Assembly (NCBI RefSeq): GCF_003264935.1
Contig: NZ_QLOE01000007.1
Span: 4,629-36,628, forward strand
Length of the DNA: 32,000 nt
Direction of reading: 5' to 3'
Origin: Methanothermobacter tenebrarum
Lineage (GTDB): Archaea > Methanobacteriota > Methanobacteria > Methanobacteriales > DSM-23052
Under the pieces are notes generated by a model. The model was not told the DNA's origin, did not search any database, and saw only the letters and a list, made by a program, of their open reading frames with translations. This document shows, in pieces, positions 643-26,726 of this stretch; position 1 is the first letter of the stretch, and each line of letters opens with the position of its first letter. The position numbers and the translations under genes are program-made.

Positions 643-1836
643 ATGAAAATATGTTATATTTCAAATTTGTATCCTCCAATGGTGTTAGGTGGCGCCGAGA
701 TCGTAGTAGAAAAAATCGCCACAGAAATGGCCAGAAGAGGCCATGAAATTATCATAATCACAAGCAATGACAAAAATAAACCCCAAACTATGGCCAACAA
801 CATCAAAATATATAGGCTTCCACTCAACATCTATCCTATCATAAATTTCCACAAGCAGAATCTTACCAGGAGAATACTATGGCACCTCATAGACTTAATC
901 AATATAAACGCCTACAAAAAGATCAAAGAAATATTAGAGAAAGAAGCGCCAGACATAGTCCATATACACAACTATAAAGGATTATCCACTTTATCCTTCA
1001 AACTGGTAAAGGATCTCAATATGCCCCTTGTTTTCACGGCACATGACTATTCAACTATCTGTATAAGGAGCAATCTTCTCAATGGAAAAGACCAAATATG
1101 CGAGGAGCAAAATTTTCCATGCAAAATCTATAACCAAATCCAAAGACTCCTCATAGATAAAAAACCAGACATCGTCACAGCACCATCAAAATTCGTGCTC
1201 AAAAAATTTGAATCCAAAGGCCTATTCAAAGATTCTAAAAAAATTGTGCTCCCCAACCCAATAGAACTAAAAGATGAAAACAACAAGAAAACCTACGATA
1301 CAATTGACATACTATTTGTCGGATCACTTTCAAAGCATAAAGGCCCCCATATACTCATTAAAGCATTCCAAAAAGTAAAAGGAGAAAATCTAAGGCTTCA
1401 CATTGTCGGAAAAGGCCCGTATTTTGAAGAAATGAGAAAGCTTGCAAGGGACGATAAGAGGGTTATATTCCATGGTTTTCTTCGTGGGAAGAGACTCATG
1501 GACATGTATAGGATGGCGAATGTCACGGTCGTGCCATCAATATGGTATGACAATTCCCCTATGGTAGTATATGAGAGTTTTATTTGTTCAACGCCTGTAG
1601 TTGCAAGTGGGATTGGGGGGGTACCAGAACTTGTCAGAGATGGTTATAATGGTTTTTTATTCGAACCTGGAAATGTGGATGAACTTGCAAATATATTAAA
1701 TGAAATTTCAGAAAATCCAAAGATTCTCAGGAAATTGGAAAAGGGAGCACGCAAATCAAGTAAAAAATATGATATAAAAAGGCATATGAGTAGTTTAGAG
1801 AAAATCTATAAGGGTCTAATAGAAGAAGGGGGATGA
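643..1836 (+). CDS. GT4-family (GT-B fold) glycosyltransferase
   Basis: 397-aa ORF. N-terminus MKICYISNLYPPMVLGGAE is typical of GT4. The C-terminal donor-binding domain reads PSIWYDNSPMVVYESFICSTPVVASGIGGVPELVRDGYNGFLF (E-x7-E type motif). Confidence 0.9.
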   Translation: MKICYISNLYPPMVLGGAEIVVEKIATEMARRGHEIIIITSNDKNKPQTMANNIKIYRLPLNIYPIINFHKQNLTRRILWHLIDLININAYKKIKEILEKEAPDIVHIHNYKGLSTLSFKLVKDLNMPLVFTAHDYSTICIRSNLLNGKDQICEEQNFPCKIYNQIQRLLIDKKPDIVTAPSKFVLKKFESKGLFKDSKKIVLPNPIELKDENNKKTYDTIDILFVGSLSKHKGPHILIKAFQKVKGENLRLHIVGKGPYFEEMRKLARDDKRVIFHGFLRGKRLMDMYRMANVTVVPSIWYDNSPMVVYESFICSTPVVASGIGGVPELVRDGYNGFLFEPGNVDELANILNEISENPKILRKLEKGARKSSKKYDIKRHMSSLEKIYKGLIEEGG

Positions 1837-1839
1837 AAA

Positions 1840-2781
1840 TTGCGTTTTGAGAGAATATTTGCAAGTAAATTGATGCATCCCAGGAGCCCAGTATGGTTGT
1901 CATATTATACTCTCATGGGTGCTAAAAAGGTTTTCAAGGCAATTAGGAATCCTTTGAAGGCTTTCATGTTTTATCTTGGCTTTTTCAATGAATGTACTTT
2001 AAATTTAAAATATTTGGGTAAAATAAGAGTTAGAAAGGATGATTTGAAAAATAATTTTTTTCAGACACTCGTAAGCGTATGTTCCATGGATTTGGGCTTT
2101 GAGCAGCGGAAAAAACTTTCCCATATAATTGCACAAAAAGATAAGGACATGATAGAAGTTGGTGATGTGAAGATAAAGAATTTAATACCTCTCTTTATTT
2201 TATTGGAGGTTTTTGTGTTGGAAAATTACAAGTTTGCAAAGCTAAAGCAGGGCGATATTGTATTGGATATTGGGGCCTCAGTCGCTGACAGTAGCCTTTA
2301 TCTTGCAAAAGAAGGATATACTGTTTATGCATTTGAACCTAACCCTAAAATATATAAAATCGGAGAAGAAAATCTTAAACTCAATCTTCATCTTGCAAGG
2401 AAAATCCATTACATAAACAAAGCAGTATCAACCAAAAAAGGGAAAATCAAACTAGATATAACAGGAGAAAGCCATATAGCCTCCCTATATACAAAAGGTG
2501 AAAACAGGATAACTGTAGATTCCACTACACTAAATGAAATAATAGAAAAATATAAAATAGTTCCCCAAGGATTAAAATTGGATTGTGAAGGCTGCGAATA
2601 CGAAATCTTAGAGGAAGCACAATTATCACCATTCAAAGAAATAATATTAGAATATCATCCACAACCCACAAAAAAAACACCACTAGAGATAATAAAGAAG
2701 TTAAAATCTGAGGGATTTCAAGTAAATTTAAGGGGCAATTATAGCATAGGTTTGATCCATGCATGGAGGAAGAAACAGTGA
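1840..2781 (+). CDS. FkbM-family SAM-dependent methyltransferase
   Basis: 313-aa ORF with VLDIGASVADSSLYLAKEGYTVYAFEPNPKIYKIGEENLKLN and LKLDCEGCEYEIL, both typical of FkbM-type methyltransferases. The ORF opens with TTG at 1840, 3 nt after the upstream stop; the first ATG is at 1873, so the exact start is uncertain. Confidence 0.8.
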   Translation: MRFERIFASKLMHPRSPVWLSYYTLMGAKKVFKAIRNPLKAFMFYLGFFNECTLNLKYLGKIRVRKDDLKNNFFQTLVSVCSMDLGFEQRKKLSHIIAQKDKDMIEVGDVKIKNLIPLFILLEVFVLENYKFAKLKQGDIVLDIGASVADSSLYLAKEGYTVYAFEPNPKIYKIGEENLKLNLHLARKIHYINKAVSTKKGKIKLDITGESHIASLYTKGENRITVDSTTLNEIIEKYKIVPQGLKLDCEGCEYEILEEAQLSPFKEIILEYHPQPTKKTPLEIIKKLKSEGFQVNLRGNYSIGLIHAWRKKQ

Positions 2782-4916
2782 AACGAGACATACTCTACAT
2801 CCTAATACTATTAATACTCACAGATATCAGTATTGTAACTAATATCCCTTTTTTAAGGCAATCTTTACCCTTCCTATTCTTTAGTATAGTCCCAGGTTAT
2901 TTGTTAGTTAAAGGTTTTAACATTAGACTTATTGAGAAGTTTAGTTTGTCTGTTGGGTTAAGTCTTGCTTTTATTATGCTCACAGGACTTTTTGTGAATA
3001 GCCTATACCCCTTAGTTTTAAGACCTTTAAGTTTGGTACCCTTGTTAGTCTCATTGAATATCCTTGTGCTTATCTTATTGTTTTTTTGTTTTAGAAAAAC
3101 GGGGGATATTAGCTTTTCCCTTGGAAAAGAGTGGAAGAGTGTATTTTCCCACCCGATTGTGTTTTTTCCTCTCTTTTTACCAATTTTAACAGTCCTCGGA
3201 TCCTATATTATGAATATATATTCTATTAATCTTATTTTGCTTTTCATGTTAATTAGTATACCAGTGTATATTCTTATTCTTGCAATGGAAAGAGACAAAG
3301 TACACCCTTTTGTTTATCCCATCACTTTATATTGTATTGGATTTTCTCTCCTCGCCTTGAATATTCTACCATCTAATTATATCATTGGAAGAGACATACA
3401 CATGGAATATTATTGTTTTAAGACAAGCCTACTCAATCATCATTGGGATATCCATGATCCCTATCATTCATACAATAGTTGTTTGAGCATCACAATATTA
3501 CCTGCTATTTATAAATATTTGTTGGGAGTGCCCCCTACTCTCATATTTAAGTTTTATTATCTTCTGATAGGGGCCATTGTACCTGTTCCTATGTATGTTT
3601 TCGCGAGACGCATCCTTAAAAGTAGAGAATTTGCATTTTATGCAACATTACTTTTAATGTTTCAATTCGCTTATACTTATATGGGACAATATGCTCGTCA
3701 GCTTATTGCATTTCTTTTTTTCGCCACTGCAATCATGACCTTAACAATTCCAATAAAAGAATCCTACAAGAAGATCCTATTCATAATATTTATCCTGGCA
3801 ACGGTATTTTCCCATTATACATCAAGTTATGTTTTTTTTGCTGTCGTGGCGATACCACCATTTATTATATGGGCAAGCAAGCACCTAAAAGGCAGATTCC
3901 ATTTTCCATGGAAATATTCGAGAACATTTTCTAATAAGAATCTGGCTCTCCTATTCTTTGTTATCATATTCTTATGGTATGCGCAGGTAACAGGTCCACA
4001 ATTTAGGGATGTTTCAAATGTTATTATAGAGACATTTAGGAGTATGGCGAATTTCTTCTCCCTAGATCTTAGGAATTATTCAGAGCAGGCTGTTCTTGGC
4101 ATTGGAATAGCCCACATACCCAACTTTTTGAGTACATTTGTCCATGACGTTATATTCGCTCTTATTGGCATTGGAGTTTTAGGATTATTCTTTAAATCAG
4201 AGTATCGAAAAAAATATGGGGTAAGTGATGAGTATATCGCCTCTACCATTGTTATATTGGCTATTCTTGCCTCATTTGTCATCCTACCATATGTATCGAA
4301 GGCTTATGGTGGTACAAGGCTCTTTTCACAATTACTGGTAATCCTGGCCCCTTGTTTCATAATCGGAGTCAAGTTTATTGTAGATTATGCGAAGAAGTTT
4401 AGGATGCCATTTGAACGAGAAAAGTTAATGAGAACTCTGATACTGGCACTTTTAATCCTTGGATTTATATGTACAAATTATCTTCAATATGAGCTTTTTG
4501 GCATCCCATACTCCTATGCCTACGACAGTGGTGGTGAGCGAAGATATGAAACATTCATCTATGACAGTGAAGTCACAGGCGCACAATGGCTAAACAACTA
4601 TGGCAACAAAAGCGCAACCATACACACCGACAGAGTAGGCGACCATAGAATCCTTCTGGGCTTCAACAAAAAACCTAAAACAGATCACTTTTTCTTTAAT
4701 AATACTGGCCCATTCCAAAAAGGAGATTACATCTATTTAAGACATTTAAATATAAATGAGGAACTTGTATTTAAAGATACTCCAGGTAGGCCTCCACGAT
4801 TTATTAATGGTAGATTGGAAATGGATAATGTGGAGCCATTAACAAAATATTTCTGGTTACTCACGGATAAGAGTACCATATATGATAATGGAGGGTCAAT
4901 GATTCTATTTGGATGA
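2763..4916 (+). CDS. Polytopic membrane protein of the glycan cluster (DUF2206-like; candidate polymerase or GT-C-type transferase)
   Basis: 717 aa. More than a dozen hydrophobic helices cover the first ~560 aa, followed by a ~150-aa soluble C-terminal domain. The start overlaps the FkbM gene by 19 nt. The family name is from memory only. Confidence 0.6.
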   Translation: MEEETVKRDILYILILLILTDISIVTNIPFLRQSLPFLFFSIVPGYLLVKGFNIRLIEKFSLSVGLSLAFIMLTGLFVNSLYPLVLRPLSLVPLLVSLNILVLILLFFCFRKTGDISFSLGKEWKSVFSHPIVFFPLFLPILTVLGSYIMNIYSINLILLFMLISIPVYILILAMERDKVHPFVYPITLYCIGFSLLALNILPSNYIIGRDIHMEYYCFKTSLLNHHWDIHDPYHSYNSCLSITILPAIYKYLLGVPPTLIFKFYYLLIGAIVPVPMYVFARRILKSREFAFYATLLLMFQFAYTYMGQYARQLIAFLFFATAIMTLTIPIKESYKKILFIIFILATVFSHYTSSYVFFAVVAIPPFIIWASKHLKGRFHFPWKYSRTFSNKNLALLFFVIIFLWYAQVTGPQFRDVSNVIIETFRSMANFFSLDLRNYSEQAVLGIGIAHIPNFLSTFVHDVIFALIGIGVLGLFFKSEYRKKYGVSDEYIASTIVILAILASFVILPYVSKAYGGTRLFSQLLVILAPCFIIGVKFIVDYAKKFRMPFEREKLMRTLILALLILGFICTNYLQYELFGIPYSYAYDSGGERRYETFIYDSEVTGAQWLNNYGNKSATIHTDRVGDHRILLGFNKKPKTDHFFFNNTGPFQKGDYIYLRHLNINEELVFKDTPGRPPRFINGRLEMDNVEPLTKYFWLLTDKSTIYDNGGSMILFG

Positions 4917-4939
4917 TAAAAAAATGACAGAGGTTATAA

Positions 4940-6670
4940 ATGAATATTTTGCCGGCACTTAATTGTAGGATAAGAGTAATGATGGTCTGGCTGGTGAATT
5001 ATATCGAAGTCTTAAAAATAAACCAGTTTAGTAAACTAAGGAAAATTGAGCAGCTTGGAGTGATCACACAAGTTGAACCTTCCGCCTCACATACAAGATG
5101 GGATTATGTTTTACTTCAACTCCATTTAATCAACAAAATACGTGAAAATATAGGAAATTTAGGTAACGTTGAAGTTGAAGGGGAAAAGTTGAGTGGTGCT
5201 GAAATTTTACAACTATGGGTTTTTCTTTTTAACATTGGACATCTTCCAGGCACTTTCGCTACAATGCGGGGCTTATTGTCAGCTTTGGTAAATGAGGAGG
5301 AATTAAGGGAAAGATTAAGAGAAAAAGTTCCTGAGAAAATTAAAAAGTATTTTGATGAAGTTATAGAAAAGAGGAATATTTTTGAATTGCCTAAACTTTT
5401 ATCATCAATACTTTTAAATGAGAGGTTAAATGAGCAGTTGTCGAAAGTTATCCCTGGGTTGATATACTGGTATTGGAAACCGGAGAAGAGTGAAAAAGAG
5501 TTGAAATCTGCTTCACCAAATTCAAATGAGGTGAAACTGGCTAAGAAGATTAAAAAATTGAAATCGTATTTTAGAATGGTTAGACGTTTGGCTTATATAT
5601 TCCTTGATTCGAAATACGTCAAGTCTCCGATAAGTTTTGATGTTTCTAAGATCCTTTTAAATTTTGACAATTACAAAGATTTGATAATGGAGCCAGGAAG
5701 TCAACTTGATAAAACTTTACAAGCATGCGAAGATTTCCTATCTGTAGCATTGTATCATTCCAAGGATACAATAACTCAACTGGGCATACATTCTAAAAAA
5801 GTTGTTTCTAAAGAAGTCGAAAGGACATTCAAAGACTATGAGAAGGATTTATTTAAACTCTTGAAGGACGAGACTATGTTTTATCCCAAGAGATATAACC
5901 CTCTACTTACTTTCCATGTTCTTCTTGACTTAAATCATGCCGGTCAAGACATTGATGAAATGATTGGGGAAATGAACAAGGATTTTTATGAGCTTGAAGA
6001 TGAGTTAAATAAAAATTGGCAAAAAGAGGCAATGATGATTTATCAGCCAGGCTCTAACAAAAAACATATCGCGGTAAACTTATCGATTTTCCAAGAACAA
6101 AACATTTGGCAAATAATAAAAGAATTTACTTCAAGAATTATAGATATTTCTAGTAATAAAAGGATTAAGGAAGTGCTCGATGAACAACTTTTTCCATGCC
6201 TTTTCAAATTTGCAATAAACACCCTATTCGAATCAAAATCTTTAAAAACATTCTATTTCGCCATTGACAGGATCTCTGCAGGTAAAAGAGAAAGTCTCAA
6301 AAAGAAGGTCAAGGAATGGCTTAATAAAGAAAATGATGAAAGTAAAAAGTACGAATTAGAATCATTAAAGAAAATAATAAAAGAGAAAGTAGATAAGGGT
6401 ATCATAGGCCATAGTATAAAAATAAAAGAAGAGGTAAGAGTAGAAAACCAGGATGGTCAAGATATTTGCGAATTCGATGCTCTATCATTACTAACCGATA
6501 AAAATGGCATGAGAGTATTATTCTTAGAAGCAAAAAGGGGAAAGAAAAGTCCGCAATCAGAGGCAAAAGATCAATTGAAGAGATCCTTGCAAAAATTAAA
6601 TTTATTAAAAGACGATAAGATCCAAACAGGCAAGAATAAGAAATATGCATATTACGAGGTGAAGCTATGA
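4940..6670 (+). CDS. Degenerate HD (SAMHD1/dGTPase-like) scaffold fused to a C-terminal PD-(D/E)xK nuclease core; function unknown
   Basis: 576-aa ORF with GAGGT 6 nt upstream of the ATG. NQFSKLRKIEQLG..PSASHTRWDYVLLQLHL, LFNIGHLPGTF and LAYIFLDSKY track the HD-dNTPase motifs, but every metal ligand is replaced. The C-terminus has EFD(513)AL, then 16 residues, then LFLE(530)AK(532)RG. The stop overlaps the next gene's ATG (ATGA at 6667-6670). Confidence 0.6.
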   Translation: MNILPALNCRIRVMMVWLVNYIEVLKINQFSKLRKIEQLGVITQVEPSASHTRWDYVLLQLHLINKIRENIGNLGNVEVEGEKLSGAEILQLWVFLFNIGHLPGTFATMRGLLSALVNEEELRERLREKVPEKIKKYFDEVIEKRNIFELPKLLSSILLNERLNEQLSKVIPGLIYWYWKPEKSEKELKSASPNSNEVKLAKKIKKLKSYFRMVRRLAYIFLDSKYVKSPISFDVSKILLNFDNYKDLIMEPGSQLDKTLQACEDFLSVALYHSKDTITQLGIHSKKVVSKEVERTFKDYEKDLFKLLKDETMFYPKRYNPLLTFHVLLDLNHAGQDIDEMIGEMNKDFYELEDELNKNWQKEAMMIYQPGSNKKHIAVNLSIFQEQNIWQIIKEFTSRIIDISSNKRIKEVLDEQLFPCLFKFAINTLFESKSLKTFYFAIDRISAGKRESLKKKVKEWLNKENDESKKYELESLKKIIKEKVDKGIIGHSIKIKEEVRVENQDGQDICEFDALSLLTDKNGMRVLFLEAKRGKKSPQSEAKDQLKRSLQKLNLLKDDKIQTGKNKKYAYYEVKL

Positions 6671-7743
6671 GAATCCTCTTCATCCATAACACGGCAATGT
6701 GGTATAGAATACCATTCTTTAAGAGATTAAATGAATTATTCAATGTCAAGTTCCTTTTTACAGACTTTAACCTAATTGGGGAAATATATGACGAATCATA
6801 TGAGAAGGCTTTAAAAGGTTTGAAAGGCTTAAATTATAAAATTCTCAATGGCATAGATGATCTAATAGAAGAATTGGTGCAATTAGACTATGATGTGATA
6901 ATAGGCGGATCTTGGGATTCTATACCTGAAATCTTTAGGAGTTTGATAGTTTATATTATTGGAAAATTAAAAGGTAAAAAGATTATTTTATTCCATGAAG
7001 ACTGGAATTGGGGATTCTCATTTAAACGGAAACTTATAAGTCCCATTGTCAAATTCTTCTGTATTCTTGCAGATGCCATAGTGGTACCCGGAAGCATCCA
7101 TAAAAGATATTTCATAGAGATCTGCGGAGATCCAGATAAAGTCTTTATAGCGCCTAATGCAACAACTCTCAAAATAGCTGATTCCCACGCCACTGATAAA
7201 AAGATTGTATTATATGTGGGTCGTCTCATAAAACGTAAAGGTGTTGATTATCTTATCAAAGCATTCCAAAAAATCAATGACCCCGAAGCATCATTGATGA
7301 TTATAGGATATGGGGAAGAAGAGGAAAAATTGAAAAGGCTTGCACATGGATCAAATAACATAATTTTTGTTGGTAAAGTTTCCCAGGATAATTTGTACAA
7401 GTATTATTCTAGGGCTAGTGTTGTGGTTGTACCTTCAATTAGTGATGAAATGGGTGATCCATGGGTTTTTGTATTGAATGAAGCAATGTTACATGGTAAG
7501 CCTGTAATTGCAACAGATGCAGTTGGTGGAGCATATGACCTTATCCAAAATGGTGTCAATGGTTTCATGGTGCCTGAAAAGAATGTTGATGAATTATATA
7601 AAGCAATAAAAACGATAATTAACGATCCTAGACTACAAGAAAAAATGGGGAAAGAATCAAAAAGGATAATAAAAAAAGGTTTTACCTATGAAAAAATGGT
7701 TGAAGGATTCAAAAAAGCCATTGAATACGTGGTGAGTCAATGA
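6667..7743 (+). CDS. GT4-family glycosyltransferase
   Basis: 358 aa. C-terminal GT-B donor domain reads VPSISDEMGDPWVFVLNEAMLHGKPVIATDAVGGAYDLIQNGVNGFMV. Both ends have 4-nt ATGA overlaps with neighbouring genes. Confidence 0.85.
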   Translation: MRILFIHNTAMWYRIPFFKRLNELFNVKFLFTDFNLIGEIYDESYEKALKGLKGLNYKILNGIDDLIEELVQLDYDVIIGGSWDSIPEIFRSLIVYIIGKLKGKKIILFHEDWNWGFSFKRKLISPIVKFFCILADAIVVPGSIHKRYFIEICGDPDKVFIAPNATTLKIADSHATDKKIVLYVGRLIKRKGVDYLIKAFQKINDPEASLMIIGYGEEEEKLKRLAHGSNNIIFVGKVSQDNLYKYYSRASVVVVPSISDEMGDPWVFVLNEAMLHGKPVIATDAVGGAYDLIQNGVNGFMVPEKNVDELYKAIKTIINDPRLQEKMGKESKRIIKKGFTYEKMVEGFKKAIEYVVSQ

Positions 7744-8881
7744 AATTCCTACTTAAAGGTGCTGAGTGTTCACGGAACAAGGGAACCGCCGCTATTTTGA
7801 AAAGTACTATTTTAACTTTAAAAATATTTTTTGAAAGACCTTCATTTGTAAGTACTAGTCCTCATCCAGCAGATGACAAAAGAAATTGTAAAAAAATCCG
7901 ATTTTTAAGTAATTCAAAGTTGCGCGTTTTTAAAGCTTATAAAGATAAAAATGATTTTGATTGCGTTTTAGATCTCAGCGGCGATACGATATCCGATGAT
8001 TATGGCAAACTTACGATTTTTGGTTTATTATATGATCTTATTATTTATAAAGGCCTTTTAAGAAAGCCCTATGTTATCTATGCTCAATCATTAGGCCCTT
8101 TTAGCAGCATTTTAACCAAGATAATTGCCAAGATAGCGTTTAGTTTTATCGACCTTATTATAATAAGAGAGAATATAACTGCCCAATATCTTGAAAAGTT
8201 AGGTATCAAAGGGTTTATATAGGGGCGGATCCTGCTTTTCTTCTCCCTAGCGCAAAGGAAGATACCCTAATTGAAATATTAAATAATGAGAGGATTCCAA
8301 CTGACAAAAAATTAGTTGGGATAAACATGAGCCAGCACTGTTATGATATCTTAGGAGACAAATCCAATGAATATCTCAATATTCATGCTCAACTAATAGA
8401 TCATTTAATTGAAGAACTTGACGTAAATGTTGTGCTGATACCACATGTAATATCTGAAGGTTTTGATGATAGAAGCGTATCATCACTCACATACTCCAAA
8501 ATAAAAAATAAAAAACATGTAAATATAATAAAAGGAGATTATACCCCTGAAGAAATAAAATCAATCATAGGAAACTGTGATCTTTTCATAGGGGCCAGGA
8601 TGCATGCTACAATAGCATCAACATCGATGTTTGTGCCAACTGTGGGAATAGCATACAGTCATAAAATGCATGGGATAATCGGCGAAATGCTCAACCTTCA
8701 AGAGTACGTAATCGATTTAGAAAAGTTGAATTCTGAGATATTAATTGAGAAGATTATGCTGGCATGGAAAAACAGGGAGAAAATAACTGAACATCTTCGA
8801 AAAAAAATCCCTGAAATAAAACAAAAAGCTCTAAAGAATGGGAAATTATTAAAGAAATTATGCGATTCACAACTTTCCTAG
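7740..8881 (+). pseudogene. Polysaccharide pyruvyl transferase (CsaB/WcaK-type), split by one frameshift near 8208-8222
   Basis: The 7740..8222 ORF carries the N-terminal half (GDTISDDYG, YAQSLGPF, IIRENITAQYLEKLGIKG) and ends in TAG. The continuation VYIGADPAFLLPS...LVGINMSQH is open from 8195 in another frame and runs into the 8327..8881 ORF (FIGARMHATIAS). The two frames overlap at an AAAGGG run. Confidence 0.7.
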
Positions 8882-10090
8882 AAAATCTATTCTGGCTTTT
8901 AAAGATGCGATAAGAGAATATAAAAATATGTATCTTTTTTTAAGTATCCATGGAATCTTCAACTTTGAGGGTTCAAAAAAGGCTATTATGCTATCAATAA
9001 AATCCATTCTAGGAAAATTACCATCATACAGAGAATTCCTGTGTAATTTTTTCTTCACATATAAATTGTAGATTTGCGAGAGAATAACCTTTTCAGGCTC
9101 GATAGGTTCTATTTCACAAATTTCCTTGTTCTTCATGTTCTTGAGGATTTTAGAGTTTTTTCTGGCTATGATAAGGGTCTTACCCTTTCTTTCACTTGCA
9201 AATTCGGCCAACCACGGGTCTCCAAAAGAAATATCAGAAAGCTCTGCCATATGGTCAACGCAAAGTTCGCATCTTTTGGGGACAAAAAGTTGCCCAAATC
9301 CGGATCCCCAATAATCAGATAATAATATTCTGATTCTGCCACCTGATTTTGTTTCAATTTTTAATTTTCCCGGCCAGCCTTCTCCACGATAAATTATATT
9401 TTTAACTTCTTCTTTTTTGACGTTAAGTTTTTTAAGTAGGAATTCTGTTGCCTTGAAACTAGGTGTATGATTGCAGAATATGCCAAGATGGTACTTTATC
9501 CTTTTTTTTAATTTTCTGTTGATCTTTTCTGCTTTTCTTATTCCATGTATGTGGCATGGTAAGCCCACAATGGCATATTTTCCTGGGGTTTTGAGTATTT
9601 CTTTTAATGCGACGTTTGCTGGTACTGGGCAATATTTGGATCCTTTTGATTCCTTTATTTCTTGTGTTGTGCGGGCTATGAATGGTTCAGGTTCAAAGGG
9701 TTTTTTGGGATTCATACGGGTTACGAGCGCACCATCAATAAAATTTTTTTCAAGTAGGTATAATAAGATTTGAGTTATCATACCTCCCGAAGATGAATTG
9801 TACCTTAATTTTTCATTTAATGAATAGCCAATGTAACAGCCCTTGTAGTTTCCAATTAGTAAATTTTTTGGTTGTTTCCCAAAAATATCATCGTTAAGTT
9901 CTCTGAAGTCTACACCAATCCCAGGGCAAACTCTAATGCATTTCATGCATTCATCACATTCCCCATTGATGATTGGCACATATAATCCCTTTTTTTGGTC
10001 GATTTCCATTCTTATAATATTTTGGGGGCATAAGGCTGCGCAAGTCCCGCAACCAATGCACAGATCCTCTATTTCGCCGACGTTTTTCAT
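8867..10090 (-). CDS. FrhB-family (coenzyme F420 hydrogenase/dehydrogenase beta-like) Fe-S flavoprotein
   Basis: 407 aa. The N-terminus has two 4Fe-4S ferredoxin motifs, CIGCGTCAALCP and CDECMKCIRVCP, followed by an FrhB-like body (GLPCHIHG, FCNHTPS). Its 3' end overlaps the pyruvyl transferase 3' end convergently by 15 nt. Confidence 0.8.
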   Translation of the reverse strand: MKNVGEIEDLCIGCGTCAALCPQNIIRMEIDQKKGLYVPIINGECDECMKCIRVCPGIGVDFRELNDDIFGKQPKNLLIGNYKGCYIGYSLNEKLRYNSSSGGMITQILLYLLEKNFIDGALVTRMNPKKPFEPEPFIARTTQEIKESKGSKYCPVPANVALKEILKTPGKYAIVGLPCHIHGIRKAEKINRKLKKRIKYHLGIFCNHTPSFKATEFLLKKLNVKKEEVKNIIYRGEGWPGKLKIETKSGGRIRILLSDYWGSGFGQLFVPKRCELCVDHMAELSDISFGDPWLAEFASERKGKTLIIARKNSKILKNMKNKEICEIEPIEPEKVILSQIYNLYVKKKLHRNSLYDGNFPRMDFIDSIIAFFEPSKLKIPWILKKRYIFLYSLIASLKARIDFLGKL

Positions 10091-11535
10091 GCTTCTTTCC
10101 CTAACAAGTTATTCAATAATAGTCTGTCATCATCTCCGAAGGTTCTCAATAGGAAGAGGGATATGAAGTAAATGAGTGTGGCAAGGCCGATGAGGATGAA
10201 TGTGTTCAAGTTTTTTATTGGGTATATTGTTAGAGCCATTATGATTGATGCTATTAGGGGTTTTGTGAATGTCTGGTTTACTTTTATTGTTTTATAATAG
10301 CGTCCTATATAGAAGAAGAATAGAGTGTATAGTAGGAGTTCTGAGAGTACTGTGGCTATGCTTGCACCTATGTAGCTGTAGTAGGGTATTAGTATGAGGT
10401 TTAGGATGATGTTGAAGGCGGCGCTTATGCCTACGCTGAACATTCTATAGCCTTGTCTGTTTATGGATGTTAAAAGCGTTCCTGTGATGCTGCTGACGAG
10501 TCTGAAGGGTATGAATAGGGCTAGGATTTGGAATGCTATTATGGCACTGGTATATCCTCCAGCATATAGTATTGATATGAATTTGTCTGCAAGTATGAAG
10601 CATCCAGTGGCAACGGGAAAGCCCAAGATTGCGAGGTACTTAGATGAAATGATTGTAAACTTTTCTAGGGATTTTTTATTTTTTTTGTAGTATTTTGACA
10701 TTACAGGGTAGATTGCAGTTGACACTATCCCTGCGACAATCATGCTTAGACTCAGGAGGGGATTGTAGGCTGCATTGTAAATTCCTACGGCAACATCATC
10801 CTTTAAAAAACCTAGGAGTATAGTGTCTATTTTGAAGAAAAATACTGCAAATAGCGAATTCAAGCCGAATGGTAATCCCATTATTAAAAGTTTTTTCTGA
10901 AGTTCCCAATCGATTTTAAAGAGTGGTCTTATAAATTTTTTGAAGCTTATGGTTACTGCGACGATCATATCTATGATGCCTGCTAGCATATAAATGTATC
11001 CAACTGCTATCACGCCGTAGCCCATGAATAAGACCGTTAGAGTGAGGGTTACGATTATTATACGTTCTATGATCTGGAATAGTGCGACGTATTCCATTTT
11101 TTCCCAAGCTTGAAAAAGTGAAAGATAAGTACTTGAAAGTGTGAGAAGGATGTTGTATATCCCAAAAAGATATAATAAAATCGATAGTGTTTTAGGGAAC
11201 CTTAAGAGCCATGTTATGAGAACGATACCTATGAAGGTTAAAATTGAAAGAGAAACCTTTAATAGGATAGCGTTATTCACATAGTGTTCTGAAAGTTGTT
11301 TTTCCCTTGCGATCTCCCTTATAAGGAGTTGGTTAACGCCAAGGTCTGCGAATATTACAAAAAGACTTGTAAATGAAAATGCGAAATTATATTTTCCAAA
11401 ATCGGCTTCTCCGAGAAACCTTGCAAGGTATATGACCAGTACAAAGGATATCAGAGCAGTTAATATTTGTGCAGTTCCTGTCACTCCCATGTTCTTTACT
11501 ATTCTCTGAATCTGATTCATGTAACCACTGAACAT
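10087..11535 (-). CDS. Wzx-type oligosaccharide flippase (MOP/polysaccharide biosynthesis protein family)
   Basis: 482 aa, about 12-14 hydrophobic helices, with the N-terminal pattern typical of PST-family flippases (ARFLGEADFGKYNFAFSF). Its 3' end overlaps the start of the downstream FrhB-like gene by 4 nt. Confidence 0.8.
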   Translation of the reverse strand: MFSGYMNQIQRIVKNMGVTGTAQILTALISFVLVIYLARFLGEADFGKYNFAFSFTSLFVIFADLGVNQLLIREIAREKQLSEHYVNNAILLKVSLSILTFIGIVLITWLLRFPKTLSILLYLFGIYNILLTLSSTYLSLFQAWEKMEYVALFQIIERIIIVTLTLTVLFMGYGVIAVGYIYMLAGIIDMIVAVTISFKKFIRPLFKIDWELQKKLLIMGLPFGLNSLFAVFFFKIDTILLGFLKDDVAVGIYNAAYNPLLSLSMIVAGIVSTAIYPVMSKYYKKNKKSLEKFTIISSKYLAILGFPVATGCFILADKFISILYAGGYTSAIIAFQILALFIPFRLVSSITGTLLTSINRQGYRMFSVGISAAFNIILNLILIPYYSYIGASIATVLSELLLYTLFFFYIGRYYKTIKVNQTFTKPLIASIIMALTIYPIKNLNTFILIGLATLIYFISLFLLRTFGDDDRLLLNNLLGKEA

Positions 11536-11827: not shown

Positions 11828-12730
11828 TTATTTTTGTGTGTCTTTGTATGCTGTGGTTGCTGCTATTGCCCCTTCTGCGCATGCTGTAATCCATTGGTTG
11901 AGGCCGCCGGTTATGTCTCCGGCCGCATAGACTCTTTCGATGTTGGTTCTTTGTTGTTTGTCGGTTATTATGTAACCGGCCTTGTCTAGTTTTATTCCCA
12001 GGTTTTTTGCTAGTTTGTTTATGGGTTCTTCTCCTATTGCTATGAATATTCCGTCGGTTTTTATTGTGCTGGTTTTTCCTGTTTTCTTGTTTTCTATTAT
12101 GGCCTCTTGGACTTTTTCTTTGCCTTTGATCTCTTTTAGTACAGTGTCCCAGATTATGGGGATTTTTTGTTTTTTTATTTGGTCTTGTAGGTATTTTTGA
12201 GCCCTTAGTTGGTCTCTTCTGTGTATTATTGTTGGTTTGGATCCTATTTTGTGTAGGAATATTGCTTCTTGTAGTGCGCTGTTTCCTCCTCCGATTACTA
12301 GGACTTTTTTGTTTTTGTATAGTGGTCCGTCGCATGTTGTACAGTATGATACTCCTCTTCCTAGGAATTCTTTTTCTCCTGGGATTTTTAGTCTTCGGTG
12401 GCGTGTGCCTGTGGCTAGTATTATTGTTTTGGTTGTGTAGGTGTCTTTTTTTGTTTCTATTTTAAAGTTTTTAGAGTTTTTTTCGATTTTTGTGACTTCT
12501 TCTAGTTCTTTGAGTTTTGCATGTTTTGTTGCTTGTTTTTTCATTTTTTGTATGAGTTTTTGGCCTTGTATTTTTTCGTATCCTGGGTAGTTTTCCATGA
12601 GTGGTACTTCTAGTCCTTTTCCTCCTGCTATTCCTTTTTCGAGTATGAGTGTTTTGCTTCCTTGTCTTCCGGCGTATATTGCTGCTGTTAGTCCGGCTGG
12701 TCCTGCTCCTATTATTATTATATCATACAT
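11828..12730 (-). CDS. trxB: Thioredoxin-disulfide reductase
   Basis: 300 aa. FAD motif [17 protein letters not shown], redox-active CTTCDG, NAD(P)H motif [12 protein letters not shown] and C-terminal YAAGD. Confidence 0.9.
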
Positions 12731-12744
12731 TGGCTTGGTCTCCG

Positions 12745-12770
12745 AAAATTTTATAAACTTTATATTACTT
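12745..12770. promoter_or_regulatory. Bidirectional archaeal TATA region serving the tRNA pair (+) and trxB (-)
   Basis: AAATTTTATAAACTTTATATTA lies about 20-30 nt upstream of the tRNA-Glu 5' end (12783) and about 20-35 nt upstream of the trxB ATG (12730) on the other strand. This is a sequence-pattern call only. Confidence 0.45.
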
Positions 12771-12782
12771 AGAATAATATGT

Positions 12783-12857
12783 GCTCCGATAGTGTAGTCC
12801 GGCCAATCATCTCGGCCTCTCGAGCCGAGGACCCGGGTTCAAATCCCGGTCGGAGCA
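12783..12857 (+). tRNA. tRNA-Glu (anticodon CUC)
   Basis: Hand-folded cloverleaf. Acceptor GCTCCGA/TCGGAGC, D arm GTGTAGTCCGGCCAATCAT (archaeal tRNA-Glu-like), anticodon stem TCGGC/GCCGA with loop CT-CTC-GA, T arm CCGGG-TTCAAAT-CCCGG, discriminator A. CCA is not encoded. Confidence 0.9.
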
Positions 12858-12861
12858 TTTT

Positions 12862-12935
12862 GCGGCGTTGGTCCAGCCTGGTTAAGACACTGGCCCCCCA
12901 AGCCAGTGACCCGGGTTCAAATCCCGGACGCCGCA
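12862..12935 (+). tRNA. tRNA-Gly (anticodon CCC)
   Basis: Acceptor GCGGCGT/ACGCCGC, anticodon stem CTGGC/GCCAG with loop CC-CCC-AA, T arm CCGGG-TTCAAAT-CCCGG, discriminator A. It starts 4 nt after tRNA-Glu and is followed by a T-run. Confidence 0.85.
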
Positions 12936-12938
12936 CTT

Positions 12939-13535
12939 TTATAGTGTTGCGATTTCTCCTGCTGATGTTATTTCGAGTTTTTCGGGGTCTATGAATCCCA
13001 TGTTTCTTAGTTCTCTTATGTGGTTGTATGTCATGCCCCTGCTTATCCCGAGTTTTAGGGCGAGGTTTTTTACTGAGGTTTCTCCTTTTTTGAGTTCTTC
13101 TAGTAGTTTCTTTTTTGTCTTGGATATTCCGAAGCTTAGTATTGGCAGGTCTATTATTTCTCCTTCTTCTTCTGTTACGTAGGCTATTCTTTGGACGTCG
13201 TTGTTTCTGGCGTAGCATCCGAATAGTACTCCTAGGGCTTGGGTTTTTCTTCCTCCGCTTATGTTCACTACTATTTTTCTTCCTTTTGCTCTTTCTTCGT
13301 CTATTGTGTCTACTGTGTCCTTGGCTATTTGGACTACGTCGTATAGGCTTGTTTCTTTTATTTGTACTTTGATGAATTTTCCTAGTGTGTCTTCTATGAT
13401 CTTTTGTACTTGTTCTTTTTCTTTTGGTGGTTCTTCTTCCATTATTAGGACGACTTTTCTGGGTGAGAATTGTGTTATGCAGATCATGACTGGTTCTATG
13501 GAGTATACTGTTGATATTAGGGTTGTTTCCATCAA
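12939..13535 (-). CDS. Csa3-type CARF domain + winged-HTH transcription regulator (CRISPR-locus-related DNA-binding protein family)
   Basis: 198 aa. The N-terminal Rossmann-like domain has NISGGRK (13245-13265), matching the CARF [DN]x[ST]xxx[RK] motif. The C-terminal wHTH reads [35 protein letters not shown] lies 8 nt upstream of the ATG. Confidence 0.7.
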
Positions 13536-22953: not shown

Positions 22954-25467
22954 TTATCCTGTTTGGATTGTTGAGATTCCGCCATTTTTTTCTACTGTGA
23001 ATGTGTGGTCTGCGAGGTTTTCTAGTTCTTCTTCATGGGATACTATTATTATCTGTGAGCATTCTAATTCATCTAATATTTCTCTGAATTTTAGGAGTTG
23101 TTCTTTACTAAATCCGTCTGTTGGCTCGTCTAGTATGAGTATGTCTGATTTTATTGAGGAGTATCTTTGAATGATGGTGTTTAGTGCTAGTCTGTATGCT
23201 AGTGCTACGCTTGTTTTTTCTCCTCCACTGAGGTGCTCTATGTCTTGTTCGTAGCCTCCTTGTTCTATGATGGGTGTGAAGTTTTCGTCTATTCTCACTG
23301 TTTTTTCATTGTCTTCTACGAGTTTTTGGAACCAGCGTTGGAAGTGGCTGTTGAATTCTTGGTTCATTTGTAGCATTACATGGGTTTCGATGTCGTGTAG
23401 TGTTGGTATGAAGTATTCTTTGAGCCATTTAACATACTCTTTTAGCCTTTTTATGGATCTTTTTATCTTTTCTTTTTCTTTTATCTGTTCTTCCAATTCT
23501 CTGATTTCTTTTTTTATCCTTTTGAGCGCTCCAAGGTTTCTTTGGCGTTCATTTTCACATTCTCTTATCCTTTCCATGATTTGGTCTAGTTTATTCTGGT
23601 TTTGGTCTCTTTTTTCTTTTATTTTATCTTTTTTCTCTAGTATTTTGTCTAGTTTTTTGATTTTTTCCTTTGCGGATTCTATTTGGTTTGTTTTTTCCTT
23701 TATGATTCTTTTGTTTTCTTGGTATTCCATGTTTTGGGTTGGTTTTAGTTTCTTGATCATTTCTTGATGTGATCTTATGGAGGCTTTTATGTTGGCTATT
23801 TTTTCTTTTAATCTGTCTCTCTCACCCTCTAATTCACTCTCTTCGGTTTTAAGCCGTTTCATCTCATCCTGTATGCCTGATTTCGCTCTTATGCTCTCTT
23901 CTAGGCTTTTTATCATCCTTTTTATATTTTTTGTTTTTTCTTGGATTTTTTCTATCGCTTTATTATTTTTTTGGCAGGTTTGTTCCTTGTCTTCTAGTTT
24001 TTCTTTGAGGCTTTCTAGTTCTCTTTTGGCGTTTTCATATTCTCTTATTTCTTCTTTGAGCTTCTTTTTTTCTTTTATTTTTCTCTCGTATTCTTTTTTT
24101 GTTTTTTCAAGTTCTTTTTTCTGCTCTTGTTTTTCTTTGAGTTTCTTTTTGATCTTGGACGGGTTGACTGGGGCTCCGCATGTTGGACAAGTTTTTTCTT
24201 CTTTTATTGAGGAGTAGTCATTTATCTTAGCGTTGATTTCCCCTATTTTTTCCTCTGTTATCCCTATTTTTTTCCTGTATTTTTCTATGATTTCTTCGAC
24301 TTCTGTTAGGCTTTGAGTGGATGGTTTTTTAATCCTTTCCAAGCTTTTGATTTTTTTGGTGATCGTGGATTGTTCCTTTTTGATTTTTTCGTTGTCTTTT
24401 TGGATTTCTTGAAGTCTTTCTAGATGCTCTTGCTTTTGTTTTTTCAGGTTTTCTAATTGGTTTTTGCCTAGTAGTATGTTCTCATAGTCTTCTTGTATGT
24501 TCTCTATTCCCCTTTTTATAATTTCTAGGGATTCTTCTACCCTTTTTAGTCTCTTTTCTTGTTTTGATTTTTCTTTTTCTTTTTCCTCTTTTTCTAGAAT
24601 GTGTCTTCTGTACTCTTCTTCTATCCTCTCATTTTTCTTCTTGGCTTCTTCTATCTGCTCCCTTATAATATTAATCTTCTCTATCAGACTTTTTTTCTTG
24701 CTTTCAGCATATTTTACCTTTTCATATTTCATTTCTAACTCTTCGAGGTTGTATTCTACAAGTTTTCTCTTCTCTTCTAGTTTTTCCTTCTCATCTTCTA
24801 TTTTTCTGATTAAAAGCTCATACCTTTGCATTTCATCTTCACTGTCATCTTTCTTATCCTTTAATTTTTGTAGGTCGTGTATTCTCTCCTTGAGCCCATC
24901 AGCCCTTTTTCCAATCCTAGCCGCCACCATATTAGCGTTATTTATGGCTATCTTATAATCTTCCAATCTTAGAGCCTTTCTAATAGTCTTAAGCCGATCT
25001 TCAGGGTTCATGTTTATTATATTTTTCATCTCCTCTTGTGGGGTGAAAACAGCATACCTGTAAATGCGGCTTTTTGCACGCGGATTCAAAGGCTCATTAT
25101 ACTTTAATTTCTCAAGTATCTTGTCCTTCATCTCTGTCGGTCTCAAGTTCATCCTACCATTCTCTGTCTCAATATAACATTCACCCTGGCTTATACTCCC
25201 ATTAGTCCTTCTAAGACTCCTATAAACAGTGCAGGTTTTACCATCCACTTGGAATGTTAAGGACACATAACCCCTATTCGAACCCAGACGGAGCAGACCA
25301 GCCCCTCGTTGACCGCCAAGACCAAAAAGGGCGAACTCAACCGCTAAAAGTATTGTTGTCTTACCAGAGCCGATATCACCCTTAATAAATGTAACACCAG
25401 TAGAAAAGTCTATCCTCGCCTCCCTATAACTTCGAATATTTTTAAGTTCCAAAGATTTGATGATCAT
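22954..25467 (-). CDS. rad50: Rad50 double-strand-break repair ATPase
   Basis: 837 aa. Walker A GDIGSGKTT, a long K/E-rich coiled coil, zinc hook CPTCG (24178-24189), signature LSGGEKT, Walker B ILILDEPT and VSHEEE. Its ATG overlaps the mre11 stop. Confidence 0.92.
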   Translation of the reverse strand: MIIKSLELKNIRSYREARIDFSTGVTFIKGDIGSGKTTILLAVEFALFGLGGQRGAGLLRLGSNRGYVSLTFQVDGKTCTVYRSLRRTNGSISQGECYIETENGRMNLRPTEMKDKILEKLKYNEPLNPRAKSRIYRYAVFTPQEEMKNIINMNPEDRLKTIRKALRLEDYKIAINNANMVAARIGKRADGLKERIHDLQKLKDKKDDSEDEMQRYELLIRKIEDEKEKLEEKRKLVEYNLEELEMKYEKVKYAESKKKSLIEKINIIREQIEEAKKKNERIEEEYRRHILEKEEKEKEKSKQEKRLKRVEESLEIIKRGIENIQEDYENILLGKNQLENLKKQKQEHLERLQEIQKDNEKIKKEQSTITKKIKSLERIKKPSTQSLTEVEEIIEKYRKKIGITEEKIGEINAKINDYSSIKEEKTCPTCGAPVNPSKIKKKLKEKQEQKKELEKTKKEYERKIKEKKKLKEEIREYENAKRELESLKEKLEDKEQTCQKNNKAIEKIQEKTKNIKRMIKSLEESIRAKSGIQDEMKRLKTEESELEGERDRLKEKIANIKASIRSHQEMIKKLKPTQNMEYQENKRIIKEKTNQIESAKEKIKKLDKILEKKDKIKEKRDQNQNKLDQIMERIRECENERQRNLGALKRIKKEIRELEEQIKEKEKIKRSIKRLKEYVKWLKEYFIPTLHDIETHVMLQMNQEFNSHFQRWFQKLVEDNEKTVRIDENFTPIIEQGGYEQDIEHLSGGEKTSVALAYRLALNTIIQRYSSIKSDILILDEPTDGFSKEQLLKFREILDELECSQIIIVSHEEELENLADHTFTVEKNGGISTIQTG

Positions 25468-26726
25468 AAAAGATCACCTAGGGACTTATCAAGTGACAAT
25501 ACACGAAGAGCATCACGAAACATCCCATCCTCATAATCTATTCTGCGCTCATTAGGTTTCCTATCCCGCTTCAAAACATCCAAAAGTTCCTTGGCAACAT
25601 CAACATCACACTCTCTGAGAACATCCAAGTTTTCCCTGTTCTCCTTGAAAAGGATCTTTTCAATCTTTGAAGCATCCTGATCAAACCTAACCCTTATCCG
25701 CCGTCTTTCACGGCGCTTGAGGCCATGCCGGTTTATGTTAACATGTAAAGCCCCCATCTCCATGAGCAGATTCCTTATCCTTAAAGGATCTATATCGGCT
25801 GTTTTACCTGATGAAAGCTCCCCCAAAATCTTCACCATAACGAGCTTATCCTCAACATCACAAACTTGTAGCTTGGAAATTATATCATCCATAGCCTCCT
25901 GGGAGCCTTTACCTGTAACATCATATTCAAAATAGGCATATTTAACAAAATCCAATGGCATAAAATTCGTACTCTGGATAGTATCATCAAATTCTATAAT
26001 ATAAAATCCCCGCTGTTTGCCATTGGCATTTGCTTCAAGATCAGTTGCATATGATCCAAACAATGGCCCAGGATAGACTATCAGACCATAATCTTCTTCA
26101 TATTTTTCTATCCTCTCATGTAGGTGACCCCCCGCATAATAATCAAAGCCTTGGGGGAAAAGGTTTAATGGGATGGATTCCATCTCTGAAAGATATGCTG
26201 GTTTAAATTCTGTTATGGCACTATGAAAAAGGAATATCTTAAACCCTTCCTCGGCTTCTAATGGGCCCCTGTCAAGGTATCTGAACTGTTCTATTTCCAT
26301 ACTCATTCTACGGGCTGATATACCCGTAAGTTTCGCCCCAGTCACTGGGTCCGCGGTAAAATCAAGAGTATACCCTTTTTCTTCTCGGCGGATCTTGTCC
26401 ACCCTTTTTAGTAAACCCGCGCTTTCAAGCACGTCAATCATTGATGTTCTGGTTGGACTGTAATCATGACTCCCATAACATACATATACCGGTATTTTAG
26501 CCTCTTTGAGACCTCTTAATATTTTAGCGACTCCCTTGACAACTTCCATATTGGGTATGTTAGAATGGAATAGATCCCCTGATATTAGGATAAAATCAAC
26601 CTTTGAATCGATGGACCTCTTGATGGCCCTTTCAAAACTTTCAAGTTCTAGCCTTTTAAGTTCTGTGTATCTATGCGCCCCAAGGTGACAGTCTGCTAAA
26701 TGAGCGAATCTATACATAATCTGCAC
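25464..26726 (-). CDS. mre11: Mre11 nuclease
   Basis: 420 aa with a GTG start. Phosphoesterase motifs FAHLADCHLG, SGDLFH, YGSHD and GGHLH. Confidence 0.9.
   Translation of the reverse strand: MQIMYRFAHLADCHLGAHRYTELKRLELESFERAIKRSIDSKVDFILISGDLFHSNIPNMEVVKGVAKILRGLKEAKIPVYVCYGSHDYSPTRTSMIDVLESAGLLKRVDKIRREEKGYTLDFTADPVTGAKLTGISARRMSMEIEQFRYLDRGPLEAEEGFKIFLFHSAITEFKPAYLSEMESIPLNLFPQGFDYYAGGHLHERIEKYEEDYGLIVYPGPLFGSYATDLEANANGKQRGFYIIEFDDTIQSTNFMPLDFVKYAYFEYDVTGKGSQEAMDDIISKLQVCDVEDKLVMVKILGELSSGKTADIDPLRIRNLLMEMGALHVNINRHGLKRRERRRIRVRFDQDASKIEKILFKENRENLDVLRECDVDVAKELLDVLKRDRKPNERRIDYEDGMFRDALRVLSLDKSLGDLL

Follow-up and report, generated by a model that had tools for sequence, protein, structure and literature searches.

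A candidate standalone defence nuclease with a predicted SAMHD1-type pseudo-dNTPase domain, inserted into a surface-glycan cluster of Methanothermobacter tenebrarum

Why does a gene for a putative nuclease lie inside an operon for surface glycans? The question is raised by an open reading frame (ORF) in a 32,000-nucleotide stretch of DNA from the archaeon Methanothermobacter tenebrarum (contig NZ_QLOE01000007.1, positions 4,629 to 36,628); the window below means this whole stretch, and coordinates are collected in Table 1. Its product matches an M. tenebrarum ‘hypothetical protein’ with 100% identity. An initial annotation, made by eye from the letters, had described it as a deoxynucleoside triphosphatase (dNTPase) scaffold of the SAMHD1 type that has lost its metal ligands and is fused to a PD-(D/E)xK nuclease core. 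With moderate confidence, the protein is here interpreted as a standalone defence nuclease directed against mobile elements, which would be gated by its pseudo-dNTPase part acting as a sensor and would belong to a large, undescribed family of archaea and bacteria. Both the assignment to defence and the mechanism are what we infer from sequence comparisons, and the insertion of the gene into the glycan cluster is traced by comparison with related genomes.

The N-terminal part of the protein resembles HD-dNTPases in sequence as well as in predicted structure. A phmmer search with the window protein against the PDB returned 2q14 (E 7.6e-4) and 2hek (E 4.9e-3), both over amino acids 29-143, and a family profile matched Rhizophagus SAMHD1 (9mr6) with an E-value of 9e-7. 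Five genuine HD-dNTPase genes were fetched by tblastn and aligned (alignment A5) for profile comparison, and hhalign against these gave a probability of 95.7% and an E-value of 9e-9 over 224 aligned columns, covering amino acids 8-283. An AlphaFold2 (AF2) model of the full protein, built on an 11-sequence alignment, reached a predicted local distance difference test score (pLDDT) of 83.6 and a predicted template modelling score (pTM) of 0.84. When this model was compared with the PDB using Foldseek, the top 50 matches were exclusively SAMHD1 and bacterial HD-dNTPases. The best of these was 9ec2_B (E 1.1e-4, probability 1.0), and 2hek, 2o6i, and 2q14 were also returned. A search of a viral structure library gave HD phosphohydrolases only, and no Pfam HD model was matched by the window protein. 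The similarity to HD proteins in these profiles and in the predicted structure is far above chance. The HD-dNTPase likeness seen by eye in the first ~230 residues is thus borne out by phmmer, profile, hhalign, and Foldseek, and the profile and AlphaFold/Foldseek check that had been proposed for it did find the HD fold. By these computational comparisons the N-terminal ~280 amino acids have a SAMHD1-type HD fold, which possibly reaches as far as residue ~465. Sequence searches with the middle region, amino acids 284-465, gave no significant match. The Foldseek alignments to SAMHD1 span ~480-500 columns, and the middle region is possibly equivalent to the C-terminal lobe of SAMHD1.

The metal ligands of SAMHD1 are H167, H206, D207, and D311; L150 is a steric gate at the 2' position, the 3'-OH is bound by D319 and Q149, and the pocket is closed by Y374, the helix of which shifts about 10 Å onto the deoxynucleoside triphosphate (dNTP) (PMC5207538). 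These positions were mapped onto the window protein in three steps. An ungapped alignment of the family profile to residues 141-166 of full-length SAMHD1 (7ujn_A) equates Q38 with Q149, L39 with L150, R53 with R164, and Y56 with H167. Comparison with A5 by hhalign places F97-N98 at the H-D pair and H101 at the last His of the ‘HDxGH’ motif, while R215, A218, Y219, and D223 correspond to the first Asp, the second Asp, the Tyr, and the last Asp of ‘DRLDYxxRD’. A phmmer comparison of one A5 member (L041) with SAMHD1 then sets these Asp and Tyr positions as D311, D314, Y315, and D319. R164 and H210 of SAMHD1, both of which have retained equivalents here, contact phosphate. Y272 is taken by us to be the counterpart of human Y374, a numbering based in part on the motif.

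Conservation of these residues was counted in 130 full-length representatives with ~20-30% identity. All four metal ligands are replaced throughout the family, H167 by Y56, H206 by the residue at position 97 (F97 in the window protein), D207 by N98, and D311 by R215. Three of the replacements are themselves conserved, with Y56 in 127 of the 130, N98 in 115, and R215 (5582-5584) in 129; position 97 varies, with His practically never found there. The equivalents of the deoxyribose/3'-OH pocket of SAMHD1 (Q38, L39, D223, and Y272) have also been kept, as have R53 and H101, each being conserved in 86-130 of the 130 sequences. Position 38 is Q in 86 and H in 39 of them, L39 is found in 128 and G40 in 129, position 53 is R in 119 and K in nine, H101 is found in 123, Y272 in 129, and D223, corresponding to the 3'-OH contact, in all 130. 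The loss of all four ligands that the initial annotation had read from the single sequence is in this way confirmed and found to be conserved across the homologs. It had correctly given the changes from EH to DY (D55-Y56 at 5102-5107) and from HD to FN (F97-N98 at 5228-5233). The D-to-A change that it had placed within 5588-5608 is a real substitution (D314 to A218), but not that of the fourth ligand; A218 was rejected for this role since it aligns to D314, and ligand D311 maps to R215. Without the metal site the protein is not expected to have dNTP triphosphohydrolase activity, and an active dNTPase was rejected as a candidate for the same reason. Because the replacements are conserved and the set of deoxyribose-reading residues survives, the site seems to be a remodelled, non-hydrolysing binding site and not a decaying one.

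The C-terminal domain consists, in the AF2 model, of a helix (467-483), three strands (486-497, 508-520, and 523-531), a second helix (538-552), and a last strand (569-575). This predicted α-β-β-β-α-β order is the core order of PD-(D/E)xK nucleases, and pLDDT is ~90 in most of the 10-residue blocks and 67-83 in a few. The initial annotation had proposed a textbook restriction-endonuclease-fold core here. The residues on which it was based, D513, E530, and K532, are indeed present and are conserved in the family, while for the fold itself the case comes down to the motif, the predicted topology, and a weak hhalign match. The last was obtained between a C-terminal profile of 40 sequences (A3) and four HsdR nuclease domains (A6); it amounts to 37%, with an E-value of 3.5e-4 over 31 columns, and takes in no more than the ExK strand and the Q-helix after it. 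Pfam gave scattered sub-threshold matches only, HSDR_N, HamA, PDDEXK_9, and Endonuc_Holl being found among many unrelated families. The C-terminal profile had no match among PDB sequences and retrieved two fragments only from a 5.8-billion-protein database, and a single-sequence model of amino acids 320-576 was poor (pLDDT 56). In sum, motif and model strongly suggest a PD-(D/E)xK nuclease, and the fused domain is probably active in cutting DNA. When conservation of the D..ExK residues in the homologs was compared with that of the lost HD ligands, as had been proposed, both the triad and the loss turned out to be conserved.

The window protein is one member of a family that is large, real, unnamed, and found in archaea and bacteria. 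When 1.84 billion cluster representatives (clusters at 50% identity) were searched with a family profile, 855 family clusters reached E<=1e-3, of which 391 had E<=1e-30, and most of the 150 matches listed are full-length homologous proteins of about 600 amino acids. Those that have names are all ‘hypothetical protein’, including WP_151619055.1 from the Bacillus cereus group. The window protein has no meaningful match in Pfam, NCBIfam, PADLOC, or PHROGs, and no consistent Pfam or PADLOC family match was seen among 72 diverse members. Membership in a named defence family of PADLOC-DB v2, including Shedu, Hachiman, and the PDC candidates, was rejected since no hidden Markov model matched. Full-text literature searches for the architecture and the accessions, and of a recent preprint on modularity-based discovery, found no description. 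The earlier remark that this is not a described system therefore agrees with the libraries and the literature searched. Retrieval of loci on the basis of alignment A1 gave 28 genome loci with a patchy taxonomy covering at least 10 phyla or classes. They span Methanobacteria, Methanosarcina, Bacteroidota, Cloacimonadota, Desulfobacterota, many Bacillaceae, Clostridia, Planctomycetota, Chloroflexia, and Pseudomonadota. Archaeal defence systems are in general under-sampled.

A census of the 137 neighbours within ±3 genes of the family genes points to a connection with defence. The commonest Pfam families among them include AAA_21, AAA_15, N6_Mtase, HsdM_N, Methylase_S, and HSDR_N, as well as ResIII, SWI2_SNF2, Eco57I, phage integrase, and Mu transposase; the commonest PADLOC matches include AriA, AbiLi, GajA, Old, and models of type I methyltransferases and restriction endonucleases. 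Defence or mobile-element neighbours are found, as a raw count, at 16 of ~26 independent loci. Tabulation of the neighbourhoods, suggested in the initial annotation as a way of separating defence islands from glycan loci, shows that the homologs are not confined to glycan clusters and that most of them adjoin defence or mobile-element genes (Table 1). An all-against-all comparison of neighbours across the loci revealed no recurrent partner gene, and a conserved two-gene system was rejected on this ground.

Two of these neighbourhoods may be described more closely. In a member of the Bacillus cereus group (L042, WBPK01000039.1) a Tn7-like element with TniQ/TnsD and TnsE carries HsdR, HsdM, HsdS, and a TIR-domain protein, followed by the family gene; this is compact defence cargo. 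At the P0011 loci (L005-L008) a conserved trio of genes lies ahead of the family gene in the opposite orientation, encoding a 322-amino acid protein, a 436-amino acid AAA_15/21 ATPase, and a 217-amino acid protein. One of these loci (L005) also has two TIR_2 proteins, and an ROK gene and a GT2 cluster follow; here too, defence genes abut a glycan locus.

Nucleotide sensing by the pseudo-HD domain is suggested because the pocket residues are retained. According to the proposed mechanism, the dead pocket would still bind a ligand of the 2'-deoxynucleotide type without hydrolysing it, and the invariant R215 might replace the metal in contacting phosphate. Occupancy of the pocket would alter the conformation or the oligomeric state of the protein, as dNTP binding does in SAMHD1, and this change would license the nuclease to cut DNA during infection. 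Within defence islands, transposons, and integrative and conjugative elements (ICEs) the gene is carried singly. In the M. tenebrarum lineage it was inserted between the genes for the DUF2206 protein and a GT4 glycosyltransferase, and it would have no role in glycan synthesis. A narrower version, which can be offered tentatively, is that the protein senses the deoxynucleotide pool directly; the metal-free SAMHD1 pocket would bind a dNTP, or a non-canonical dNTP made by a phage, and thereby switch on the fused DNase.

Several points weigh against a sensor-gated defence nuclease. Defence, ligand binding, and cleavage are all predicted from the sequence and the model, and the retained pocket residues could serve the structure instead of binding a ligand. 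The enrichment of defence contexts is a raw count of loci, and about 10 of the ~26 loci are without an obvious defence neighbour. The family is also rare on sequenced plasmids and phages. No match was obtained when a Bacillus member was compared by tblastn with plasmids and phages, the window protein gave a match on one Peribacillus megaplasmid, and only one IMG/VR contig has a relative. On that contig (L050, IMGVR_UViG_3300028422_001962) the match lies at 8001-9602 and shows 26% identity to amino acids 21-555.

Parts of the proposed logic are known from other systems. Cap4 and Card1/Can2 are nucleotide-activated PD-(D/E)xK effectors, and a nucleotide-binding sensor gating such a nuclease is also what is proposed here. 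Their sensors are SAVED or CARF domains, and a partner cyclase makes the dedicated second messenger, whereas the present family has no conserved partner and its sensor seems to be derived from a dNTP hydrolase. The SAMHD1-type HD fold is shared with SAMHD1 itself and with bacterial defence dNTPases such as the dGTPase of Tal et al. (2022) and CloA of Clover (PMC12265719), and the QLG, HxR, GH, Y..D, and Y blocks by which these enzymes read deoxyribose and phosphate are conserved in the family. Defence dNTPases and the family alike occur in defence islands, and the dNTPase scaffold of Clover, which senses phage-induced dTTP, responds to phage-driven changes in dNTPs (PMC12265719). In contrast to these enzymes, the family has its ligands replaced (Y, x, N, R), hydrolysis is not expected, the predicted output is the fused nuclease and not dNTP depletion, and there is no partner nucleotidyltransferase.

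The END nucleases, where an inactivated enzyme domain (EndoIII) serves as the sensor of a fused type IIS-like nuclease (PMC12191111), resemble the family in another way. Like type IV enzymes and Shedu they combine a non-catalytic recognition module and an endonuclease module in a single polypeptide, and their gene stands alone in defence islands. The sensor of the present family differs, being a pseudo-dNTPase and not EndoIII, SRA, or a Shedu N-terminal domain, and Pfam scans gave nothing above threshold to DUF4263 or any other nuclease family, the PD-(D/E)xK matches all being sub-threshold. A dead HD-superfamily domain kept as a switch for a fused catalytic domain, as proposed here, is also found in RelA, where the pseudo-HD domain is an allosteric switch (PMC8012599). 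RelA differs in belonging to the RSH subfamily of HD proteins, in having ppGpp synthetase output, and in serving housekeeping and not conflict biology. Defence by a sensor plus a nuclease is thus already known, and the novelty lies in the pseudo-dNTPase as a sensor, which is absent from the libraries and literature searched.

If the proposal is correct, archaea and bacteria would have in common a one-protein route from a virus-disturbed nucleotide pool to the cutting of DNA, distinct both from dNTPases that deplete dNTPs and from nucleases that depend on second messengers. The 855 clusters, which include strains of the Bacillus cereus group, would then represent a widespread, unnamed single-gene immune module, and a new evolutionary route would be indicated, leading from an antiviral dNTP-degrading enzyme to a pseudoenzyme that acts as the sensor driving a nuclease. 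Whether cells take disturbance of the dNTP pool as a sign of infection could also be tested with it, and the conserved Y, N, and R at the former metal site offer a target for mutation. For genome annotation the lesson would be that membership in a glycan operon may be only apparent, the gene in question being a defence cassette inserted there.

The main rival is a reader of modified DNA, that is, a type IV-like modification-dependent restriction endonuclease in which the dead pocket reads a flipped-out non-canonical deoxynucleotide or a DNA end, and the fused PD-(D/E)xK domain cuts nearby. Such an enzyme appears rather unlikely, and a pure scaffold or a role in glycan synthesis less likely than this. 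Its modular logic would be that of the END nucleases, which join an inactive EndoIII base-reader to a nuclease (PMC12191111), and SAMHD1 itself binds single-stranded DNA and RNA (PMC10711556). The family gene is moreover a single gene without a methyltransferase or partner of its own, deoxyribose-specific residues are retained, and restriction-modification (R-M) and type IV neighbours such as GmrSD and SRA-HNH are frequent. However, the retained equivalents of R164 and H210 together with the extra invariant Arg at the metal site fit a phosphate-rich free nucleotide better. The catalytic pocket of SAMHD1 is deep and closed, and no HD-dNTPase is known to flip bases from duplex DNA. A DNA-binding domain is also not evident in the protein.

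A further alternative is that the pseudo-HD domain is a mere scaffold for structure, oligomerisation, or nucleic acid binding, and that the nuclease serves not immunity but the biology of mobile elements (maintenance, toxin, anti-defence) or DNA repair and recombination. Pseudoenzyme domains are often kept as scaffolds, the gene is carried by an ICE, a Tn7-like element, and a Mu-like element, and the roughly 10 loci without defence neighbours would also fit. A scaffold does not account well for L39, R53, Y56, N98, H101, R215, D223, and Y272 being near-invariant at ~20% identity, which points to a functional site. Defence genes typically show what is seen here, a patchy distribution, rapid gain and decay, and R-M, TIR, and AAA_15 genes next to them, and a conserved antitoxin-like partner is lacking. 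This explanation is improbable.

How the gene came to lie in the glycan cluster was examined by synteny, using orthologs of the downstream GT4. In the clusters L046/L047 (51% identity) and L048/L049 (44%) the stop codon of the DUF2206 gene overlaps the start of the GT4 gene and no gene is found between them; the remaining cluster is syntenic in the former pair and only partly so in the latter. The closer relatives L044/L045 (74% identity) have a gene-free gap of 835 bp at the DUF2206|GT4 junction. Within this gap tblastn found a match on the same strand to amino acids 18-88 of the family, with 36-37% identity and an E-value of about 1e-3 in a 1.1-kb search space. The translated gap contains the N-terminal block of the family with in-frame stops, reading VALYGNPRFILLKKEKFIDSL, a stop, NVEQLCVIIFLN, a second stop, and then KRLF. 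In the P0005 relative (L003, L004) the family gene is intact, the DUF2206 gene is inverted relative to the family gene and GT4, and a 38-nt gap replaces the overlap with GT4; the same junction has here been rearranged. Because orthologous clusters either lack the gene, hold a remnant of it, or are rearranged around it, the family gene was acquired at the DUF2206|GT4 junction, and lineages have since differed in keeping it, in rearranging the genes around it, or in losing it. This pattern of gain and decay is the behaviour of an accessory gene and not of a pathway component. The initial annotation had suspected acquired DNA, and the orthologous glycan clusters without the gene or with a decayed remnant of it bear this out. 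The position within the glycan operon, to which it had also drawn attention, is real as regards the translational overlap, but the insertion is incidental and the P0005 relative does not share the overlap, so that the glycan location and the translational coupling are incidental to this lineage. A genuine surface-glycan component, for instance a nucleotide-sugar-binding regulator co-translated with GT4, could explain why the gene lies between DUF2206 and GT4, which it overlaps by ATGA, within ~11 kb of glycan genes, why one relative has the same neighbourhood, and why one bacterial homolog stands beside a GT2 cluster, but it is most improbable and was rejected as largely refuted by synteny, given that L046-L049 have DUF2206 directly overlapping GT4 without the gene, that L044/L045 hold only a stop-riddled remnant, that most homologs lie outside glycan loci and the GT4 overlap is not conserved, and that it is not obvious what a conserved nuclease triad would do in glycan synthesis.

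The surface-polysaccharide cluster makes up the first ~11.5 kb of the window. The good Shine-Dalgarno sequence reported for the gene is present as GAGGT, 5 nt upstream of the ATG, and its stop codon does overlap the ATG of the next glycosyltransferase gene, as had also been observed. The T-ending, C-poor codon style had been regarded as a peculiarity of the gene, which it is not; the entire low-GC block from ~1.8 to 10 kb shares this style.

Table 1. Location of features in the window and of notable neighbours of family genes at other loci. Coordinates refer to the window unless a locus is named; aa, amino acids.
Feature	Location	Strand	Remarks
Shine-Dalgarno-like GAGGT	4930..4934	+	5 nt before ATG; direct sequence reading
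Predicted pseudo-dNTPase-nuclease fusion ORF	4940..6670	+	576 aa plus stop; exact ORF confirmed
SAMHD1-type HD-fold core, aa 8-283	4961..5788	+	Predicted catalytically dead; hhalign, Foldseek, profile
Q38-L39-G40	5051..5059	+	Equivalent to SAMHD1 Q149-L150-G151 (3'-OH contact, 2' steric gate), retained
R53-W-D-Y56	5096..5107	+	R53 = R164, retained; Y56 in place of ligand H167
F97-N98-I-G-H101	5228..5242	+	F97-N98 in place of H206-D207; H101 = H210, retained
R215-R-L-A-Y219-I-F-L-D223	5582..5608	+	R215 for D311; A218 = D314; Y219 = Y315; D223 = D319, retained
Y272	5753..5755	+	Presumed equivalent of pocket-closing SAMHD1 Y374, retained; hhalign to Y of ‘QVYxH’ motif
Middle alpha/beta region, aa 284-465	5789..6334	+	AF2 confident there
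Predicted PD-(D/E)xK nuclease domain, aa 466-576	6335..6667	+	AF2 secondary structure, motif
E472, conserved acidic residue, helix alpha1	6353..6355	+	127/130; invariant in A1
D513 (E-F-D-A; mostly D-G in relatives), strand beta2	6476..6478	+	130/130
E530-A-K532, strand beta3	6527..6535	+	E 127/130, K 129/130
GAGGTGA, Shine-Dalgarno sequence of downstream GT4	6656..6670	+	Within 3' end of family gene; direct reading
ATGA overlap	6667-6670	+	TGA stop of family gene / ATG of GT4
GT4	643-1836		Surface-polysaccharide cluster
FkbM methyltransferase	1840-2781		Surface-polysaccharide cluster
DUF2206 membrane protein	2763..4916	+	Upstream flank of insertion; Pfam E 1e-77
GT4 glycosyltransferase	6667..7743	+	Downstream flank of insertion; Pfam E 8e-42
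Pyruvyl transferase	7740-8881		Surface-polysaccharide cluster
FrhB-like protein	8867-10090		Surface-polysaccharide cluster
Flippase	10087-11535		Surface-polysaccharide cluster
Decayed family-gene remnant	L044:7187-7450; L045 ~3560-3760		DUF2206|GT4 gap of close relative
Type I R-M	L009, L010, L025, L042		Directly adjoining
GmrSD	L016		Neighbour
Eco57I/TaqI_C enzyme and PLD-SNF2 helicase	L013		
DEAD/MZB helicase	L032		1801 aa
PDDEXK_1-RNaseH-SF1 helicase	L027		
UvrD-HSDR_N_2-S24 protein	L028		
AAA_15/21 ATPases	L005, L030, L036		
AAA_21-DUF4435	L026		
TIR proteins	L005, L042		
Tn7-like TnsD/TnsE element	L042		
ICE	L001		
Mu-like transposase	L018		
SRA-HNH	L043		Within 9.5 kb

Some further observations were made in and around the cluster. 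The polysaccharide pyruvyl transferase gene of the window is split into two ORFs on the plus strand, 7740-8222 and 8327-8881, which cover Pfam profile positions 1-143 and 182-280. Its orthologs in L003, L004, L044, and L045 are single genes of 378 amino acids, and the split is probably due to a frameshifted pseudogene or a sequencing error. The GT4 downstream of the family gene scores above the Pfam gathering cutoff for PF20706, ‘GT4-conflict’ (28.7 bits, cutoff 26), but its match to Glycos_transf_1 is far stronger (143 bits), and the secondary match is also seen in several of the GT4 orthologs. Opposite the nuclease domain and the start of GT4 an antisense ORF of 115 amino acids with a TTG start is found on the minus strand (6402-6749); it is probably spurious.

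The genuine HD-dNTPase-like gene L041, on pSymA of Sinorhizobium meliloti (46791-50033), has its ligands intact. It forms an apparent operon with genes for a radical SAM protein, a 3'-5' exonuclease, and an AAA ATPase, and a divergent gene for a ‘three-Cys-motif partner protein TcmP’ adjoins. This cluster might itself be of a defence type.

Beyond the glycan cluster, the window holds a thioredoxin-reductase-like gene (11828-12730) and a gene for an HFX_2341/helix-turn-helix regulator (12939-13535), both on the minus strand. The third-position bias of both is extreme, with A3 ~0.65, C3 ~0.28, and T3 0.00-0.04, and the AT skew of the plus strand around 11828-13535 is -0.45 to -0.51. A pair encoding a Rad50-like protein (837 amino acids; SMC_N, AAA_23) and an Mre11-like protein (420 amino acids; Metallophos) occupies 22954-26726 on the minus strand, and the strongest AT skew of the window, down to -0.66, falls on the Rad50-like gene.

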